Assembly: GCA_029269845.2 (NCBI GenBank)
Contig: CP149973.1
Location: forward strand, 990,001 to 1,022,000
DNA from: Opitutia bacterium KCR 482
GTDB lineage: Bacteria; Verrucomicrobiota; Verrucomicrobiia; Opitutales; Intestinicryptomonadaceae
Direction of reading: 5' to 3'
DNA: 32,000 nt
Both the position numbers and the translations under genes were made by a program. This document shows positions 19,868-30,495 of this stretch, one piece after another. Within the stretch, counting starts at the first letter, position 1, and each line of letters starts with the position of its first letter. Under the pieces are notes generated by a model. It was not told where the DNA came from, did not search any database, and saw only the letters and a program-made list of their open reading frames with translations.

Positions 19868-20036
19868 CCGAAACTTGGGGGCTTGCGCCCCCAGGGGTGG
19901 ATTTCGCGTTGCGAAATTCTACACCCACTCCCCCAAGGCTGGGCGCGAGCCGCGGGCGCAAGGTGCGCCTCCCTACGGAGCTTCGGCAGGCTGCAGCCTG
20001 CACGGCAACGGAACTTCGTTCCTTCTGTTATTATTC

Positions 20037-20060
20037 GGCGCGGGTATACCCGCGCCTTTT
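20037..20060 (+). terminator. Terminator-like hairpin oriented on the plus strand
   Basis: GGCGCGGG-TATA-CCCGCGCC (8 bp, 20037-20056) is followed by TTTT on the plus strand only. The minus strand reads GAATAATAA after the stem. No plus-strand gene lies upstream, so its role is unclear. Confidence 0.35.
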
Positions 20061-20156
20061 CTGGATTAGTCCGAATTGCCTGCGGCAATTACTGGCGTTT
20101 GGAAAATGCAATATTTTGAAAAGAAACAAATAAAAATAGACGCGCTTTGCGCGGAT

Positions 20157-20193
20157 AAAAAAAAGCGGGAATCCCCAAACACGGATTCTCCGC
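20157..20193 (-). terminator. Strong intrinsic terminator closing the ahcY 3' region after the repeat pair
   Basis: The minus strand reads GCGG(A)GAATCC-GTGTTTGG-GGATTCCCGC, a 10-bp stem with one bulge (complement of 20165-20193). T8 follows (complement of 20157-20164). Confidence 0.8.
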
Positions 20194-20204
20194 TTACCGC
20201 TTCA

Positions 20205-20342
20205 CTCAACTTTTCTCCCAGAGCACTCTAAAAATCTTCCGCGCTCCGCGCTGTAATATTAGGCGCGTTAGAGTGCCGTTCAGGCGGTGGCTTTCACGCG
20301 CTTGCGGGGTGCGTGGCGTACTTTCGTACGCGAGCAATCCGC
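20205..20342. repeat. Structured repeat unit, copy A (lacks the head segment)
   Basis: Copy A is near-identical to copy C. The stretch 20265-20322 equals 27924-27981, 58/58 nt. It has two hairpin domains:
- 20223-20231 pairs with 20268-20276 (GCACTCTAA/TTAGAGTGC).
- 20298-20307 pairs with 20339-20348, enclosing TGC/GCA and the apical hairpin GCGTAC-TTTC-GTACGC (20316-20331). Confidence 0.85.
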
Positions 20343-20553
20343 AAACAAAAGTCGGCTCGCAAACCCAACAACCCCACTTTTATCCCAACGCAACCTAAAA
20401 AACTTCGTGCGCCAGCACTCACTATTTAGGCGCGTCAAAGTGCTTTCATAAGGGTGGCTTTCCTGTGCACGCAGGGCGCGTGGCGTACTTTCGTACGCGA
20501 GCGGTCTGGGTGCACAGGGAAACGCCCTTAGGGAAGTGCTTTCACGCGCCGTC
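20343..20553. repeat. Structured repeat unit, copy B (diverged, full length); it begins at the last base of the ahcY stop codon
   Basis: Copy B aligns with copies A and C over the tail AAACAAAAGTCGGCT, CTTTTATC, TAGGCGCGT, GGTGGCTTTC, and CGTGGCGTACTTTCGTACGCGAGC. The long hairpin arms are replaced by different but complementary sequence: 20459-20470 TTTCCTGTGCAC pairs with 20510-20521 GTGCACAGGGAA. The head ACGCGCCGTC (20544-20553) is shared with copy C (28036-28045). Confidence 0.8.
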
Positions 20554-21962
20554 TAATAGCGATAGTGAGAGGGTTTATATGGCCCGTCTACGGAGACGCC
20601 GATGTAGTCCGCCTGCTTTTGCGTAAGCTTCGTCAGCTTTGCGCCGAGCTTTTCCAAGTGGAGTCTTGCAACTTCTTCGTCCAAGCGCTTCGGCAGAATG
20701 TAGACTTTGTTTTCGTACTTGTCGCGGTTCGCCCACAAATCCATCTGCGCAAGCGTCTGGTTCGAGAACGAGTTGCTCATCACAAAAGACGGGTGCCCCG
20801 TGGCGCAACCGAGGTTTACCAAGCGACCCTCCGCAAGGAGGAAAATCGAGCGTCCGTCGGGGAACGTGTACTTGTCCACCTGCGGCTTGATGTTCGTCCG
20901 CTTGATGTTCGGATACGCCTGCAATTTCGCGACCTGAATTTCGCTGTCGAAGTGCCCGATATTGCAGAGTATCGCCTGATCCTTCATGTTTTTCATGTGG
21001 TCGATTGTGATGATGTCGCAATTACCGGTGGTGGTTACGTAGATGTCGGCGAGCGGCAGGGCGTCTTCGACGGTTACGACGCGGTAGCCCTCCATAGCCG
21101 CTTGGAGCGCGCAAATGGGGTCTATTTCGGAGACGAAAATCGTAGCTCCCAAGCCCTTCAACGCCTGAACGCAACCTTTGCCGACGTCGCCGTAGCCGCA
21201 GACGAGGGCGACTTTGCCCGCAATCATCACGTCGGTTGCGCGTTTGATGCCGTCTACGAGAGACTCGCGGCAGCCGTAGATGTTGTCGAATTTGCTTTTC
21301 GTTACGGAGTCGTTAACGTTGATTGCGGGAACGAGAAGCCGCTTGTCCTCCACCATCTGGTAGAGGCGGTGGACGCCCGTCGTGGTCTCTTCGGAGACGC
21401 CCTTCAATTCGGCGACGACGTTGTGCCAGTGGTTTTTGTCCTGCGCGTAGACGCGTTTGAGGAGGTCCTTGATTACCTGCTCCTCGTGCGAATCGGAGGG
21501 AGAGTCAACCCACTTGTCGCCGTTTTCAAGCTCGTAGCCGCGGTGGATAAGCAAAGTCGCGTCGCCGCCGTCGTCTACGATAAGCTGCGGGCCTTTGCCG
21601 TTCGGCCAAGTGAGGGCGCGGTAGGTGCAGTCCCAATATTCTTCGAGGGTTTCGCCCTTCCAAGCGAAGACGGGAACGCCCGCCGCCGCGATTGCCGCCG
21701 CAGCGTGGTCCTGCGTGGAGAAGATGTTGCAGCTTGCCCAGCGGACGTCCGCGCCGAGGGCTTTGAGCGTTTCGATGAGAACCGCCGTCTGGATTGTCAT
21801 GTGGAGCGAGCCGCTTATCCTCACGCCGTCGAGCGGCTTTTTGGGCGCGTACTTTTCGCGGATTGCGATAAGCCCCGGCATTTCGTATTCGGCGATGTCG
21901 AGCTCTTTTCTGCCCCACGACGCGAGGTTGATGTCTGCTATTTTATATTCCTGTTCTTTCAT
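20553..21962 (-). CDS. ahcY: Adenosylhomocysteinase (S-adenosyl-L-homocysteine hydrolase)
   Basis: The protein begins ...[26 protein letters not shown], has the NAD-binding GYGDVGKG motif, and ends in the canonical ...[11 protein letters not shown] chose the start ATG at 21962 (MKEQEYK). An upstream in-frame ATG at 21995 would add 11 aa across an AT-rich tandem 10-mer that looks non-coding. Confidence 0.93.
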
Positions 21963-21982
21963 AAATTTTGCAAAATTTTGCA
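21963..21982. repeat. Tandem 10-nt direct repeat immediately upstream of the ahcY start
   Basis: AAATTTTGCA occurs twice (21963-21972 and 21973-21982). On the minus strand this reads TGCAAAATTT TGCAAAATTT ATG. Confidence 0.6.
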
Positions 21983-22042
21983 GTTGGCATGCCATTTAGC
22001 ACAGAAATTTCCGCAAATACGGTGAATTTCCGCGCAGGTTTC

Positions 22043-25139: not shown

Positions 25140-26357
25140 ATGAAAACCATGCCCGCCGACAGGACAATCCTACACTGCGACCTCAACGGATTCTACGCGT
25201 CCGTCGAAGCCCTCGCCCACCCCGAAATAGGCGACAAGCCCATGGCGGTGTCGGGGAATCCGCGAATCAGGCACGGCATAATTCTCGCGAAGAACGAGGC
25301 GGCAAAAAAGTACGGCATAAGCACGGGAGAGCCGATTTTTCAGGCAAAGAGAAAATGCCCCAAGCTCATTCTGCTCGAACCGCACCACGAAAAATACGCG
25401 GAGTATTCGCGCAGGGTGAACGAAATCTACTCGCGGTTTACGAACAGGGTGGAACCGTTCGGAATAGACGAGTCGTGGCTCGACGTGAGCGGCTCGCTCT
25501 CGCTTTTCGGGTCGGGCGTCGAAATTGCCGACAAGCTCCGCGAAACGGTGAAGTCGGAACTCGGACTTACGATTTCGGTGGGCGTTTCATTCAACAAAGT
25601 CTTCGCAAAGCTCGGCAGCGACTACAAAAAGCCAGACGCAACAACCCTCTTCGGGCGCGGACAAACGCAGATTATCCGCGGACTGCCCGTCCGCGACATG
25701 CTGTTTGTCGGCCGCTCGACGGCGGAAACCCTGCGCCGAATGGGAATACAGACCATCGGAGACCTCGCCGACGCCGACGAAAACTTCCTAATCCGCCGCT
25801 TCGGCAAGCACGGAAAATCGCTGTCGGAGGCGGCGCGGGGCGAGGAAAATTCGCCCGTGGCGTTTTACGGAGAGGACGACGAAGCGAAGTCGGTGGGAAA
25901 CTCCATAACTTTCAAGCGCGACCTCGACGGCGCGGCGGACATCAGGGCGGGGCTCGAACTCGTCGCCGAAAAAGTCGCGCGGCGCATGAAGCGCGACGGC
26001 GTGAAATGCACGGTTATTCACGCGACAATCAAGGGCGCGGACTTCTCGTGCCTGACGCGCCAGACCACCGTGGACAAGCCGACGAATTCGAGGCTCGCGC
26101 TCGCGGAAACCGCCATGCGGCTTGTCTCGACAAACTGGGATTTGAAATCGCCAATCCGCATGCTGGGAATAGCGGGGTCGGGGCTTGTGGACGCGAACGC
26201 GCCCTACCAAGCCGACCTCTTCGAACCGCCGCAGGAGCTTTCCGAAAAAAACGAAAAAGCCGAAGACGCATTCTTCGACATTCGCGAAAAATTCGGGAAG
26301 TCGGCAATCAGCTTCGGCTCGGAATTCGAGCGCAAAGACAGGGACATCGACGGATAG
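25140..26357 (+). CDS. dinB: DNA polymerase IV (Y-family translesion polymerase)
   Basis: The protein reads ILHCDLNGFYASVEAL..., SIDESWLDV-like (FGIDESWLDVSG), and ISVGVSFNKVFAKLGSDYKKPD. Length is 405 aa. Confidence 0.92.
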   Translation: MKTMPADRTILHCDLNGFYASVEALAHPEIGDKPMAVSGNPRIRHGIILAKNEAAKKYGISTGEPIFQAKRKCPKLILLEPHHEKYAEYSRRVNEIYSRFTNRVEPFGIDESWLDVSGSLSLFGSGVEIADKLRETVKSELGLTISVGVSFNKVFAKLGSDYKKPDATTLFGRGQTQIIRGLPVRDMLFVGRSTAETLRRMGIQTIGDLADADENFLIRRFGKHGKSLSEAARGEENSPVAFYGEDDEAKSVGNSITFKRDLDGAADIRAGLELVAEKVARRMKRDGVKCTVIHATIKGADFSCLTRQTTVDKPTNSRLALAETAMRLVSTNWDLKSPIRMLGIAGSGLVDANAPYQADLFEPPQELSEKNEKAEDAFFDIREKFGKSAISFGSEFERKDRDIDG

Positions 26358-26416
26358 CCCCGCAGACGGATAGCCCCGCCGCGCAAAACCGCCAATCCGC
26401 GCCCCGCAGACGGACG
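26351..26416. repeat. Short direct repeats spanning the dinB stop codon
   Basis: CGGATAGCCCCGC occurs at 26351-26363 and again at 26367-26379 (16-nt period). GCCCCGCAGACGGA occurs at 26357-26370 and again at 26401-26414. Confidence 0.7.
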
Positions 26417-26482
26417 TTTGGCGCAAAAAAATTTCCGCGCGGCAGACAAACGCAACGCGCCTACTCTCCCGCATGCGCAAAT

Positions 26483-26512
26483 AAAAAAAGCCGCGCAGAT
26501 TGCCCGCGCGGC
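26483..26512 (-). terminator. Intrinsic terminator after the 396-aa secreted protein gene
   Basis: GCCGCGC (26490-26496) pairs with GCGCGGC (26506-26512). On the minus strand T7 follows (complement of 26483-26489). It lies 20 nt downstream of the stop at 26532. Confidence 0.65.
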
Positions 26513-26531
26513 CCGAAAAAAACTTGAAAAA

Positions 26532-27722
26532 CTACGGATTGAGCTTGCCCTCCAAACGCGCGCGCCAGTACGCGGCAAGGAGCGTGTACGAACTGCCGCT
26601 GTCGTGCGAGCCCGAAACCCTCGCAATGCAGCCGCGCAAAATTTTCTCGTGCTTGGGCGTCAGCTTGTAGCCCGGCGAAAGCAGCTGGCCGTTTATGACC
26701 TCGGCGCAGTCGCGGGCGTACTTGCGCTTGGAAAGGTCGAACACGGGAGAGTTTTCGACAAATTCGGCAAGCATGTCCATGAGGTCGCCGACCTGCTTTT
26801 TGAGCTTTTTGTTTTTTTCGACAACGTAGATTAGTTCGAGCGACGCCTCCATTTGGAGAATCGAATACGCGGGCACATAGGAGCGCATTTTCTTTTCGGG
26901 CATTTGGGGAAGCTCCGCCGTGCGCGTCAGCGCGTAGGGCAGGTGCTTTCTGTAAAGCTCGAAATATTCGGACTTCTTCGTAACGTCGTAGGCGGCGGCG
27001 TAGAACATGGCAAGCCGCGCGGCCTCGTGCGGATAGACGTCGAGCATTTTGCCGACGCCGCGGTCGTCGGGCATGCCCTTGTAGAATTTAAACGAGTACG
27101 GGGGGTTGCCGTCTTCGCGGACTTCGCGCGTCATCTTGTCGGCGACGGCGGAAAAAATCTTCCTGATTTGCGCCTTCTCGGCGGACGACGACATCGGAGA
27201 CCTGTAATAACGCCACATGCCGTGAATGCTGTGCGTGTACTGGTCGCGAGAAGAGCCGGGGTAGACGGACTTGCAGTCGTCGGGCGACACCCCGCGGGCG
27301 ATAAACCCCTCGTCGCCGTGGGCGGTTGCCGCAAGGACAAGCCCCTTGAAAAGGGCGGCGGCGCGAGCCTTTGAGTCGGCGTCTTTCAAGACCTCGTAGC
27401 GGTCGCAAAGCCCCGCAAGGACAATGCCGCCAAGCATGGAACAGTCTTCAATGCCCGAACCGCCGCCATGCCAGTTTGTCATGCCGTTTTTCTTCAAAGG
27501 CTTCAACTCGGCAATCTCGGCGGGCGACGGAATTCTCGCAAGAGGGGCCGTGTAGAAAAGGTTGGACTTCGGCGAATAAAAAGCCCTCGAACTGTCCTGC
27601 CAAAGACGCTCAATCTTCGACTCCAACGCGGCGTTGTCGTCGGGATTCACCTTCTGGGCAAATGCGAACGACCCCGCAAGCGAAATTATAGAAAATACCA
27701 GTGTTAATGACAATCTTCCCAT
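26532..27722 (-). CDS. Secreted hypothetical protein (396 aa), possibly an alpha-helical glycan-active enzyme
   Basis: The signal peptide is MGRLSLTLVFSIISLAGSFAFA. Coding-like composition runs throughout and a terminator follows. I recognise no motif with confidence, so the functional guess rests only on the helical-repeat feel and the carbohydrate-gene context. Confidence 0.6.
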   Translation of the reverse strand: MGRLSLTLVFSIISLAGSFAFAQKVNPDDNAALESKIERLWQDSSRAFYSPKSNLFYTAPLARIPSPAEIAELKPLKKNGMTNWHGGGSGIEDCSMLGGIVLAGLCDRYEVLKDADSKARAAALFKGLVLAATAHGDEGFIARGVSPDDCKSVYPGSSRDQYTHSIHGMWRYYRSPMSSSAEKAQIRKIFSAVADKMTREVREDGNPPYSFKFYKGMPDDRGVGKMLDVYPHEAARLAMFYAAAYDVTKKSEYFELYRKHLPYALTRTAELPQMPEKKMRSYVPAYSILQMEASLELIYVVEKNKKLKKQVGDLMDMLAEFVENSPVFDLSKRKYARDCAEVINGQLLSPGYKLTPKHEKILRGCIARVSGSHDSGSSYTLLAAYWRARLEGKLNP

Positions 27723-27824
27723 ATGCGTTATTCTATATTAAAAACAACACTCTACAAAAAAACCGCCCCATTTTCAATTACTTGTTTTGTAAAAAATAAA
27801 ATAAACAGGCTACACGAAAAAAAA

Positions 27825-28045
27825 CGGCAATCTGTAAACAAAAGTCGGCTAACGAAACGCCCTACCCAACTTTTATCTCTACACACTCTAAAAATCTTCT
27901 GCGTTAGCACTGTAATTTTAGGGGCGTTAGAGTGCCGTTCAGGCGGTGGCTTTCACGCGCTTGCGGGGTGCGTGGCGTACTGATGTACGCGAGCAGTCCG
28001 CAAGCGCGGGGAAACGCCGCATCAACGGTACTATAACGCGCCGTC
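27825..28045. repeat. Structured repeat unit, copy C (full length) plus an 8-9 nt stub of a following unit; it overlaps the hemB 3' end
   Basis: Copy C has the same architecture as copies A and B. 27884-27891 pairs with 27927-27934 (CACTCTAA/TTAGAGTG). 27956-27966 pairs with 27998-28008 (CGCGCTTGCGG/CCGCAAGCGCG, 11 bp), enclosing GCGTAC-TGAT-GTACGC. The tail GCAATCTGTAAACAAAAGTCGGCT (27827-27850) matches the A/B junction (20334-20357) at 22 of 24 positions. On the minus strand it is followed by T8 (complement of 27817-27824). Confidence 0.85.
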
Positions 28046-29038
28046 AGCGAAGTAAGTCAGTATCATGTCCGCTCCTGCGCGTTTTATTGACACAAGAGAC
28101 TCCCTCACCGTCTTCTCCAAATCAATCCAGCCGTTTTGCGCCGCAGCCATAATCATGGAATATTCGCCCGAAACCTGATATGCGGCAATCGGAAGAGTCG
28201 TGCGCTCTTTGATTTTAGCAATGATGTCGAGATAGTGCCCCGCAGGCTTTACCATGATGACGTCCGCGCCCTCCTCTTCGTCGAGAGCCGCCTCTTTCAG
28301 AGCCTCGCGGGAGTTTGCGGGATTTAACTGGTAGCCTTTTTTGTCGAGATACTTCTTCGCCTTGCCCTGCTGCTTGGGCGCGGAACCGATTGCGTCGCGG
28401 AAAGGCCCGTAGAAAGCGGAGGCATACTTTGCGCTGTACGCCATGATTGCGGTGTCCTGAAAGTCGCAGTCGTCGAGGGCGGAGCGGATTGCGCCTATTC
28501 TGCCGTCCATCATGTCGCTCGGCGCGACGAAATCCGCGCCCGACTGGGCGGCGACAAGAGCCATCGCCGCGAGAATCTCGACGGTTTCGTCGTTGATAAT
28601 CCACGTTCCCGAATCGTCGAGAATGCCGTCGTGCCCGTGCGAGGTGTAGGGATCGAGCGCGATGTCGGCGACAACCGCCATTTCGGGAAAGCGTTTTTTC
28701 ACGGCGGCAATCGCGCGGTTTGCGAGGGACTTCGGGTTGACCGCCTCGTCGGCGAGGAGGGTCTTCTTAGAGCGTTCGACAAGCGGGAACGGGGCAATCG
28801 CCATGACGCCCTTTTTCGCCAAGCCGTCGCAGAGGCGCAGGAGAGAGTCGATTGTGTGGCGGTAGACGTTGGGCATCGACGGAATTTTGTCCGCTCCGTT
28901 TTTGCCCTCTTTAAGGAAGACGGGCAGAATCAAATCGGAGGGGGAAACGCGCGTTTCCTCGCAGAGGGAGAGAATGGCGTCGCTCTTGCGCAGGCGGCGC
29001 GGACGCTTTTTTATATCGAGCTTGAAATTTTCGTTCAT
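28031..29038 (-). CDS. hemB: Porphobilinogen synthase (delta-aminolevulinic acid dehydratase)
   Basis: I trimmed the ORF to the ATG at 29038 (MNENFKLDIKKRPRRLRKSDAI...). It contains the RPRRLR, GADFVAPSDMMDGRIGAIR and VKPAGHYLDII motifs. It ends ...ADMILTYFADGAL, which is short after the conserved TYFA. Confidence 0.92.
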   Translation of the reverse strand: MNENFKLDIKKRPRRLRKSDAILSLCEETRVSPSDLILPVFLKEGKNGADKIPSMPNVYRHTIDSLLRLCDGLAKKGVMAIAPFPLVERSKKTLLADEAVNPKSLANRAIAAVKKRFPEMAVVADIALDPYTSHGHDGILDDSGTWIINDETVEILAAMALVAAQSGADFVAPSDMMDGRIGAIRSALDDCDFQDTAIMAYSAKYASAFYGPFRDAIGSAPKQQGKAKKYLDKKGYQLNPANSREALKEAALDEEEGADVIMVKPAGHYLDIIAKIKERTTLPIAAYQVSGEYSMIMAAAQNGWIDLEKTVRESLVSIKRAGADMILTYFADGAL

Positions 29039-29079
29039 TGTGGTTTGATATGAACCCGTCGAAAAAAATAGCAACAAAA

Positions 29080-30495
29080 ATGAATGTATCAATCCACAAC
29101 ACCCTTTCACGACAAAAAGACGTTCTGACGCCCGAAACCGACACGTTCAGAATGTACTGCTGCGGCCCGACGGTCTACGGCCCCGCGCACATCGGCAATT
29201 TCAGGACGTTTGTCGTGCAGGACATTCTGCGGCGCACGCTCGAATGCTCGGGGTTGAAGGTAAAACATGTAAGAAACATCACCGACGTCGACGACAAAAC
29301 AATCCGCGAAAGCCGCAAACTGGGGGTGTCGCTCAAAGAATTTACGAAGAAGTGGGAAGACAAATTCCACGCCGACTGCGACAAGCTCAACATGCTCCGC
29401 CCCACCGTGGAGCCGCGGGCGACCGAACACATCGCCGAACAGCTCGACATGGTTTCGACGCTCGTGGACAACGGGCACGCCTACCCCGCAAAAGACGGCA
29501 GCGTATACTTTAAAATAGCGTCGTTCCCCGACTACGGGAAACTCGCCGGTCTCGACCGCGAGCACATGGCGACGCAGGCGGTAAACTCGGCGGGAGAGGC
29601 AAACAACGCCGACGAATACGAGCGCGAAAACGTATCAGACTTCGCGCTGTGGAAGGGACGCAAGCCCGAAGACGGCGAGAACTTCTGGAAGTCGCCGTGG
29701 GGCGATGGCAGACCGGGCTGGCACATAGAGTGCTCGGCGATGTCGCGCAAATACCTCGGAGACACTTTCGACCTGCACGGCGGCGGCATCGACCTCTGCT
29801 TTCCCCACCACGAAAACGAAATCGCGCAGAGCGAGTGCTCGACGGGCAAATCGCCCTACGTCCGCTACTGGTTCCACAGCGCGCACCTGATGGTCGAGGG
29901 ACAGAAGATGTCGAAAAGCCTCGGCAACCTCTACACGCTCGACGACCTCACGGCGAAGGGCTACACGCCAGCGCAAATCAGATACGCACTGCTTTCGGGG
30001 CACTACCGCCAGCAGCTCAACTTCACGTTCAAGGGGCTTGACGACGCAAAGAGCGCGTTGGCAAAGCTGTCGAAATCGGCAAAGGCGGCGCTCGAAAAAT
30101 CGGGAATGTCGTTCGGCGATTTCGAAAAGCTCGTAAAGCCCGAAAACAACTTTGCGGGGACGATTTTCGAACCCGCGTGGAACGCACTTTGCGACGACCT
30201 CAACACGCCCAAAGCACTCGGCGAAATCTTCGGCGCGCTGCCGAAACTCGGCGGAGACAAAAAGGACGTCGCAGCCCTCGGCTCGCTGATGTACGCGCTC
30301 GGCATAGACCTCTCGGAAAAGACGGAGGAATCCGCCGCAGACGCCCCCGAAGAAATCACCGCCCTCGCACAGGCGCGTTGGGACGCAAAAAAGTCAAGGG
30401 ACTTCGCAAAAGCCGACGAACTGCGCAAAAAACTTGCGGAACTCGGGTGGAGCGTGCTCGACAAAAAAGACGGTTTCGACATCAAAAAAATTTAA
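29080..30495 (+). CDS. cysS: Cysteine--tRNA ligase
   Basis: I chose the start at the ATG at 29080 ([16 protein letters not shown]...[16 protein letters not shown]), by analogy with the CysRS N-terminus. The track start at 29038 is a TTG. The protein has HIGN (the HIGH motif) and KMSKS. Confidence 0.92.

Follow-up and report, generated by a model that had tools for sequence, protein, structure and literature searches.

Three units of a repeated element were identified in a 32,000-nucleotide stretch of the genome of Opitutia bacterium KCR 482 (Opitutia/Opitutales, Verrucomicrobiota; contig CP149973.1, hereafter the window): two of them, A and B, lie head to tail at window 20204-20553 against the stop codon of ahcY, the adenosylhomocysteinase gene, and the third, C, covers the end of hemB at 27864-28045. 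We read the element, with a confidence that falls just short of an even chance, as an insertion-derived, non-autonomous long-hairpin repeat that sits on gene stop codons in one orientation and owes its fold to selection on the strand that is antisense to the gene. A preliminary description of the region had recognized the tandem pair, proposed that a whole helix had been replaced with its pairing kept, and left the structured strand undecided.

The repeat stands where it had been placed, and a repeat search recovered three in-register copies (20248-20344, 20415-20511 and 27907-28003) with 69-93% identity. An nhmmer profile built from the three window copies delimited two full units, B and C, and a partial one, A (20204-20351, profile positions 1-147). 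In plus-strand orientation a unit opens with a conserved segment of 36 nt (ACYCAACTTTTATCCC..CTAAAAATCTTC), followed by a covarying small hairpin (GCGC-NNN-GCGC versus GTGC-NNNN-GCAC), a 10-nt spacer and an imperfect hairpin of about 122 nt, hereafter the long hairpin (LH; Table 1). Unit B has a minimum free energy of -88 kcal/mol and a folding z of -12.6, and unit C a z of -10.3, values far outside what chance would give. The earlier model of two hairpins joined by a linker proved wrong, as LH is one long hairpin; the supposed linker CCGTTCAGGCGGTGGCTTTCA is part of its 5' arm, pairs with GGGGAAACGCCGCATCAACGG and is not conserved in B, and this stretch of the arm finds its partner in GGGGAAACGCC..AACGG on the 3' side. 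Nor is copy A truncated at its head: in plus orientation the head is present and the outer 3' arm is missing, so that it is tail-truncated. At L014 and L013, too, a full unit has this short form upstream of it, and L007, L053 and L038 carry other upstream units that are truncated. On re-reading the sequence, we found correct the coordinates reported for the apical GCGTAC-N4-GTACGC (20316-20331 and 20483-20498), for the swapped arms (20298-20307/20339-20348 versus 20459-20470/20510-20521) and for the T-A versus C-G pair (20310/20336 versus 20477/20503), and unit B indeed ends on base 20553, the plus-strand counterpart of the G in the TAG stop of ahcY.

The element belongs to a family, F1, that is multi-copy in the close relative Opitutia bacterium UBA4654 and in metagenomes, and in which tandem arrays occur. 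A 21-base apex pattern matched 87 loci in the genome collection, against about 0.3 expected by chance as estimated from collection size and pattern length; a longer pattern matched 65 metagenome loci, and 15 loci came from UBA4654, many of them at contig ends. RNAalifold on an alignment of 32 full units (A2) gave 47 consensus pairs, 23 with compensatory change, and 97.5% of the alignment cells are paired, compared with 84.7% in shuffles (none of 500 reached the observed value) and 28-54% when partners were slid. The proposed preservation of helices by compensatory change is thus borne out: the copies are many, and their helices are preserved rather than decaying without bias towards pairing. 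The idea of whole-helix replacement holds only in part, because selection for pairing is genuine while the swap itself is better explained by the shuffling of pre-existing variants. The helices occur as a few discrete variants, each internally complementary (CGCGCTTGCGGGGT/..CCGCAAGCGCG, TGTGCACGCAGGGC/..CTGGGTGCACA and GCGAGTGGCTCAGGGT/..CTGAGACACTCGC), and chimeric copies (L031, L058 and L136) join the 5' half of one variant to the 3' half of another, with pairing lost. No Rfam 15 covariance model matched the window at gathering score, and a known RNA family was rejected accordingly; over 20000-20700 a cut-off of E<10 brought up nothing but unrelated families, all scoring far below threshold, and nothing matched at the element in ten further loci (L013, L014, L023, L079, L001, L009, L020, L056, L075 and L019), in agreement with the preliminary description.

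The evidence is one-sided in favour of the plus strand, antisense to ahcY, as the better-folding strand. The F1 consensus energy is -78.6 kcal/mol on the plus strand versus -44.5 kcal/mol on the minus strand, with the corresponding values being -88.0 versus -67.8 kcal/mol for copy B and -87.2 versus -67.1 kcal/mol for copy C. Wobble cells in A2, read on the plus strand, comprise 185 G.T versus 7 A.C (34 versus 7 among non-majority cells only), and six consensus pairs are G.U in most copies. These wobble counts and consensus energies speak against the suggestion that structure is selected on the minus strand, in a 3' untranslated region (3'-UTR) or small RNA co-oriented with ahcY. A mutational bias behind the G.T excess was considered and rejected: if deamination accompanying transcription or replication were the cause, G.U should be enriched on the sense strand, contrary to what is observed; LH is also G-rich on the plus strand, against the local skew. 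A terminator and promoter scan found no sigma-70-like promoter on either strand, and since plus-strand terminator-like hairpins lie upstream as well, an RNA from the plus strand is not supported by sequence signals.

Placement on stop codons is nearly uniform. Of the 34 arrays whose 3' end is complete, 33 have an opposite-strand frame of 90 amino acids or more that stops between -26 and +37 nt from the element end; the element starts, in gene sense, with (G/A)ACGGSGCGT. Counted over non-redundant junctions by stop position relative to the element terminus, the stop overlaps the terminus by 1-2 nt in 11, lies 12, 15 or 26 nt inside (in the other two frames) in 12, lies 1-37 nt upstream in 8, and lies 4 nt inside in a single one with an aberrant terminus (L101). 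At several junctions of the upstream class, the bases between stop and element repeat part of the terminus (ACGGCGC) or are what remains of an older 3' arm. Such partial duplicates (ACGGCGC or ACGGCT) stand between the stop and a complete element at L008, L014, L031 and L096, for example as TGA-CGGCGC-AACGGCGCG, and may be footprints of earlier copies. At hemB the element supplies the end of the protein, ..(D/N)GAL-TAG, both in the window, where 28031-28045 is the last 15 nt of unit C, and in UBA4654 (L013).

Related genomes provide sites empty of the element. AhcY homologues (83-91% protein identity) were traced to six other Opitutales contigs, where the gene is followed by a TAA stop, a short spacer and an ordinary short intrinsic terminator, and where no LH, no nhmmer match and no apex was found. 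These element-free loci with their native terminator indicate that the ahcY copy is an insertion gained in the lineage of the window and UBA4654; it starts exactly at the native stop and has replaced the native 3' flank. Unit number also differs at hemB, with one unit and a remnant in the window and two units in UBA4654, whose orthologue (L013) carries a whole extra short unit at the position of the remnant. An interspersed repeat of insertion type, with empty sites in related genomes, does not support the locus-specific 3'-UTR module of the preliminary description.

The extent given earlier for the repeat was right as to the tandem pair and too short as to the repeated DNA, since window 20009-20335 is also present at 18 or more other loci. 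Conservation extends upstream from the first unit through two minus-strand terminators and two plus-strand terminator-like hairpins, so that what is repeated is a cassette measuring about 380 nt, and 545 nt in the window, where it has two units. The minus-strand terminator already noted at 20157-20193 (T1) was called by the terminator scan as well; an alignment of 13 upstream flanks showed its sequence to be conserved at many other element loci, which makes it part of the cassette. With its hairpins at 20010-20056 (plus) and 20141-20193 (minus) facing each other, the cassette looks like a bidirectional terminator block, and the junction between A and B looks like a decayed copy of a terminator-hairpin module, as far as alignment with other loci can tell. 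Four further hairpin families in Opitutales, F2-F5, have core motifs in common (GGCTTTS / GAAAC and GTCAAA / TTTCAC), and the hairpins of F2 and F3 are flanked by an A-run and a T-run like bidirectional terminators.

In the reading that we propose, the element settles on a gene's stop codon or slightly inside it, invariably in one orientation, and the end facing the gene, (G/A)ACGGSGCGTGA.. or ..TTATAG when read in gene sense, provides a stop in every frame within nine codons. In this lineage it would travel as a cassette of about 380 nt or more made up of LH, the small hairpin, the conserved 36-mer and its own intrinsic terminators, and would thus have displaced the native 3' flank at ahcY. 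The hairpin would be kept by selection on the single-stranded fold of the window plus strand, which might be read as folded single-stranded DNA (ssDNA) by the machinery of propagation or recognition, putatively a trans-acting enzyme, by analogy with REP/RAYT, IS200/IS605 ends and attC; the invariant apex would then be the recognition site. The mRNA of the gene, if co-transcribed with the element, would carry the weaker complement, a stem-loop from the stop codon on, upstream of the cassette terminators. Recombination at conserved stretches, in the apex and the junction segments, would have reshuffled a few internally complementary variant modules and so given rise to the differences of A and C from B.

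Outside Opitutales, the same 25-nt apex, GCGTGGCGTAC-N4-GTACGCGAGC, caps hairpins of 100-200 nt in 64 matches of the 21-base pattern, with arms that are lineage-specific yet complementary, and we do not regard these matches as coincidence. The hosts include Solirubrobacterales, Coriobacteriia (Gordonibacter and Cryptobacterium), Pseudonocardiaceae, Acidimicrobiales and other Actinomycetota, one metagenome-assembled genome (MAG) each of Gemmatimonadaceae and Thermomonas, and Nanoarchaeota and Woesearchaeota among the DPANN archaea, with several copies in each genome (for example L019:1776-1904, L020:3247-3349 and L009:2339-2467, among L001-L087). In 42 of the 64 copies the stop of the antisense gene lies 40-59 nt from the apex centre, while same-sense stops are spread broadly, and the stop codon falls within the first four hairpin bases (C-TGA-G ... 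C-TCA-G). Adjoining genes are fusA, ftsZ, tsf, nrdJ, sucD, yebC, ppk, DUF885, radA and an archaeal gene of a DnaG-like Toprim protein; among the proteins with a C-terminal domain scored (EF-G, RadA, YebC, DUF885 and Ppk), the Pfam profile ends 3-17 residues from the C-terminus. Of the 37 pairs in the Solirubrobacterales set, 21 show compensatory change, and 93.1% of the cells pair versus 75.6% in shuffles (0 of 500); folding is again far better antisense, at -63.7 kcal/mol, than sense, at -36.1 kcal/mol. Beside one Solirubrobacterales hairpin, the NrdJ gene (L030:2730-6809) contains an intein with a LAGLIDADG domain.

The apex reads YGC-G-U-R-GCGUAC-loop-GUACGC-G-A-GCR, with covariation at the Y/R pair and in the 6-bp stem, and on the plus strand it fits a bulged-G (GUR/GA) module as far as the pairing table can show; a kink-turn was rejected, because its register misfits. 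The 3' arm of the apex, GUACGCGAGC (identical to GTACGCGAGC; window 20493-20502, 20326-20335 and 27985-27994), is also identical to a universally conserved decamer of 23S rRNA, known as a 23S exon and homing-endonuclease target (bioRxiv 10.64898/2026.03.18.712669). About 0.1 such 10-mer matches to 23S would be expected by our estimate, and the identity is probably a coincidence, since variant apices (GUACGUGAGC and GUAUGUAAGC) depart from the decamer with their pairing kept. An origin as rRNA fragment was rejected, as the non-Opitutales matches are not rRNA operons. These observations also allow a broader, distinctly tentative reading, in which the window element is the Opitutales branch of a cross-domain class of hairpins at the stop codons of core genes, with an invariant 25-nt apex and a structure optimised on the antisense strand, acting either as an undescribed ssDNA recombination or mobility site, that is, a mobile gene-end hairpin, or as an undescribed structured antisense nucleic acid at gene 3' ends with a widely conserved partner; we hold these two versions to be equally probable.

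Several points weigh against an insertion-derived repeat propagated through a folded antisense strand. No transposase, parent insertion sequence (IS) or consistent target-site duplication was found around the copies, and no autonomous parent element was seen among the neighbouring open reading frames (ORFs) in the blocks of 8-15 kb examined around them; the bases preceding the element are only loosely T, TA or TR. Elements of the IS200/IS605 type act on the strand opposite to the leading-strand template, whereas for genes co-oriented with replication the folded strand here would be the leading-strand template itself. Outside Opitutales, G.T and A.C are balanced (105 versus 132), and the strand asymmetry there rests on purine-rich loops, with 365 purine-purine versus 59 pyrimidine-pyrimidine mismatches. 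The hairpin stands in the orthologous fusA-tuf spacer of at least 10 Solirubrobacterales, a conservation that looks like host function rather than a selfish repeat, and some of the chimeric copies may be artefacts of metagenome assembly. The main point left unexplained is that the structurally optimised strand is, across phyla, the one absent from the mRNA of the gene.

An alternative that we consider unlikely, if worth weighing, is a host-beneficial cis-acting structured RNA, in which a stop-codon stem-loop of highly expressed genes acts on the stability, processing or termination of the mRNA 3' end, coupled to the terminating ribosome, with the apex as binding site of a widely conserved factor and spread as a repeat secondary. 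It would suit the core genes with intact C-termini (EF-G, FtsZ, EF-Ts, NrdJ, SucD, YebC, Ppk, DnaG-like, RadA and AhcY); hemB, by contrast, runs on into unit C and has the end ..DGAL-stop. The hairpin is conserved in the fusA-tuf spacer while the flanks diverge, conserved internal-loop words stand beside variable covarying helices as in riboswitch-like families, and ERIC offers a precedent of an orientation-dependent, ribosome-sensitive effect (PMC2229807). However, the sense strand folds much worse in Opitutales and Solirubrobacterales alike, by the energies given above, conserved positions become A.C mismatches in mRNA sense, the element of Opitutales, with its tandem arrays and its truncated copies, has clearly been inserted, and no factor common to bacteria and DPANN archaea is evident. 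More improbable is that the plus strand is transcribed into structured antisense RNAs, or terminates antisense or convergent transcription, with an end or start exactly at the stop codon. While the wobble pairs, the purine-rich loops and the bulged-G-like apex all lie on this strand, the F2 and F3 plus-strand hairpins lead into a run of T that shares bases with the stop's complement (GGTCTTTTA is an example), and about half of the F2 copies lie between convergent genes, the scan gave no sigma-70-like promoter on the plus strand, terminator-like hairpins stand just upstream on it (20010-20056), the F1 LH has no T-run after it, and the spacer of a fusA-tuf operon is an unlikely site for an antisense gene.

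We give hardly any credence to ordinary intrinsic terminators or simple decaying duplications that are alike by chance or by local duplication: the flanks of F2 and F3 are terminator-like and the tandem duplication at ahcY could be local, but 87 loci were found where 0.3 were expected, a U-tract is missing from both strands of the F1 LH, one and the same apex is found in different phyla and covariation is far above controls. Other origins were tried and rejected. Outer arms captured from gene ends are not needed for the extensions of similarity into ahcY and hemB, which shared variant spacers account for; an insertion nested in terminator loops would suit F2, whose outer stems are like ordinary terminators, but neither F1 nor the Solirubrobacterales copies, which have variable helices between conserved loops. 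As for a phage or plasmid origin, viral contigs gave two unrelated coding matches only, and BLAST of the unit or the cassette against plasmids gave no match. A TnpB omega-RNA or IS605 end is disfavoured by the lack of a fixed flanking motif and by upstream same-strand ORFs that are not TnpB-like by translation (no domain search was run). The insertion-derived repeat with its fold selected on the antisense strand remains the explanation we prefer.

Table 1. Features of the window associated with the long-hairpin repeat and its neighbouring genes.
Feature	Position	Strand	Remarks
Plus-strand terminator-like hairpin	20010-20022	+	GGAACTTCGTTCC + T-rich; terminator scan
Plus-strand terminator-like hairpin	20037-20056	+	GGCGCGGGTATACCCGCGCC + TTTTCT; terminator scan
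Rest of cassette	20009-20156	.	shared by BLAST as part of 20009-20335
Second minus-strand terminator hairpin	20141-20153	-	CGCGCAAAGCGCG; terminator scan
Intrinsic terminator T1	20157-20193	-	GCGGAGAATCC..GGATTCCCGC then T8; terminator scan
Unit A (short form)	20204-20344	+	profile positions 1-147
Unit A conserved segment	20204-20239	+	
Unit A small hairpin	20240-20251	+	CGCG-CTCC-GCGC...
Unit A apex	20311-20335	+	preceded by spacer and LH 5' arm, followed by inner 3' arm only
A/B junction	20345-20370	+	ACAAAAGTCGGCTCGCAAACCCAACA; aligns with terminator module GCGGAAATCC..GGAATCTCCGC of other loci and with 27827-27863
Unit B (full)	20371-20553	+	nhmmer profile positions 1-182
Unit B 36-nt conserved segment	20371-20406	+	
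Unit B small hairpin	20407-20418	+	GTGC-GCCA-GCAC
Unit B spacer	20419-20428	+	
Unit B LH	20429-20550	+	apex 20478-20502
Unit B tail	20551-20553	+	GTC; base 20553 shared with ahcY stop
ahcY (adenosylhomocysteinase)	20553-21995	-	Pfam AdoHcyase, E 1.6e-152; TAG stop 20553-20555
Remnant upstream of C	27827-27863	+	resembles short-form tail and junction
Unit C (full)	27864-28045	+	LH 27921-28042, apex 27970-27994
hemB (ALAD)	28031-29110	-	Pfam ALAD, E 7.6e-132; TAG stop 28031-28033 inside unit C

The neighbours of the element in the window are ahcY, hemB, proS, cysS and dinB. The natural C-terminus of AhcY (..HYRY) is intact; homologues are 468-470 amino acids long, so that translation probably begins some 11 codons into the ORF. 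Window 17.1-25.1 kb is 94-96% identical to a UBA4654 contig (L007), and a metagenome contig (L107) matches window 25.3-28.0 kb at 98.5% identity. The latter contig, which follows window 25266-27998, loses homology exactly at the hairpin apex (L107:8178-8359 versus window 27864-28045) and continues into a different gene beyond it; either copies have recombined and rearranged the DNA, or the metagenome assembly is chimeric. At window 19869-20008 a GC-rich stretch of 139 nt with clustered small hairpins (GGGGGCTTGCGCCCCC, TTTCGCGTTGCGAAA, GGCGCAAGGTGCGCC and GCAGGCTGCAGCCTGC) is missing from the orthologous UBA4654 spacer (L007) and present at another UBA4654 locus (L017), and so looks like a second mobile repeat. 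The F2 hairpins (L091, L126, L130, L138 and L145; Ga0154578/Ga0209417 loci) are often preceded, 60-110 nt upstream, by a conserved repeat (..GGCCTTGCTATAGAGCCATTTTTCAACGGTCTT..) that resembles the 3' end of a further hairpin copy. Some copies of the element (L014, L031 and L085, for example GTGCCGTTCAGACGGTGG) contain TTCAGACGG, which agrees with the Neisseria DNA uptake sequence, taken as its complement, at 9 of 10 bases, presumably by chance.

The element would add a large, structure-selected and undescribed interspersed repeat family to Verrucomicrobiota, for which GTAG-tagged REPs of Opitutus terrae have been named earlier (PMC3733652), and it would account for the breaks that assemblies of these gut Opitutales show there. 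Exact placement on stop codons, a fold selected on the strand that is not mRNA, and an identical apex ranging from Opitutales to Solirubrobacterales and Nanoarchaeota together point to an undescribed conserved partner or gene-end mechanism. If confirmed, this would give a handle on how gene 3' ends are remodelled, and the cassette could be a portable module of stop codon, hairpin and terminator.

Among known systems, repetitive extragenic palindromes (REPs) and their mosaics (BIMEs), palindromes tagged with CGTC or GTAG, are similar in being interspersed at gene 3' ends and clustered with other motifs, and in their presumed recognition as ssDNA by a Y1 transposase; some copies here even end in ..CCGTC. 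While REPs measure 20-40 bp with stems of 5-13 bp (PMC3733652), the hairpin here spans 122 nt with about 47 pairs, the tag has no consistent position and no REP-associated transposase (RAYT) was found. [quoted passage not shown] LH has terminal inverted repeats (arms GGCGCGTCAAAGTGC.. and ..GTGCTTTCACGCGCC), and there are empty sites, namely the six related ahcY loci, together with the differing unit number at hemB. TTA stands on both sides of LH in many F1 copies, the left one being part of the conserved unit, and no target-site duplication was seen in F2, F3 or Solirubrobacterales copies; neither a parent IS nor a consistent target-site duplication, as in MITEs, was found around the copies, and the orientation of the element is strictly fixed (33 of 34 arrays). 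It is not an intrinsic terminator in itself, since the F1 LH is followed by GTYTA.. (plus) or TAAAATTAC.. (minus) without a U-tract, and separate terminators called by the scan stand beside it (20157-20193 and 20141-20153). IS200/IS605-derived palindrome-associated transposable elements (PATEs) differ too: they have a fixed target of four or five nucleotides beside one end and separate left-end and right-end hairpins, whereas the flanks here are not a fixed word and the hairpin is single and central.

The geometry is closest to that of attC sites, such as the VCRs of about 123-126 bp, which form an imperfect hairpin directly after an ORF, often contain its stop codon, and have a fold selected on the bottom strand, antisense to the ORF, with conserved mismatches and extrahelical bases. 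The size is similar, and here also the hairpin lies on the strand antisense to the upstream ORF and overlaps its stop. However, the attC R-box pair, 5'-RYYYAAC ... GTTRRRY-3', is not present on one strand as read from the sequence; the sense strand reads ..TAAC GGCGCG ... CGCGCC TAAA, with an inner GTTAGAG ... CTATAAC in reverse order. Conservation is central rather than terminal, the neighbours are housekeeping genes in mixed orientation rather than cassette arrays, and no integrase was seen among the window proteins.

In behaviour the nearest relatives are ERIC/IRU of Enterobacteriaceae, imperfect palindromes of about 127 bp, which resemble the element in size and in forming a single long imperfect hairpin, and which are likewise interspersed, multi-copy and conserved across genera. 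De Gregorio and co-workers reportedly found in 2005 that ERIC copies adjoin or overlap stop codons in a preferred orientation, and here a hairpin of about 122 nt abuts the stop in one orientation in 33 of 34 arrays, an architecture read from sequence. ERIC has orientation-dependent, ribosome-sensitive effects on co-transcribed mRNA (PMC2229807). Unit B had no match by blastn (word size 11) among 5,426 complete Escherichia coli genomes. In contrast to ERIC, the element shows no clear TA duplication, has a conserved centre and variable outer arms, forms tandem arrays, carries its own terminators, and occurs in Verrucomicrobiota with an apex found across phyla. The element is thus closest to ERIC/IRU in behaviour and to attC in geometry, and a member of neither.

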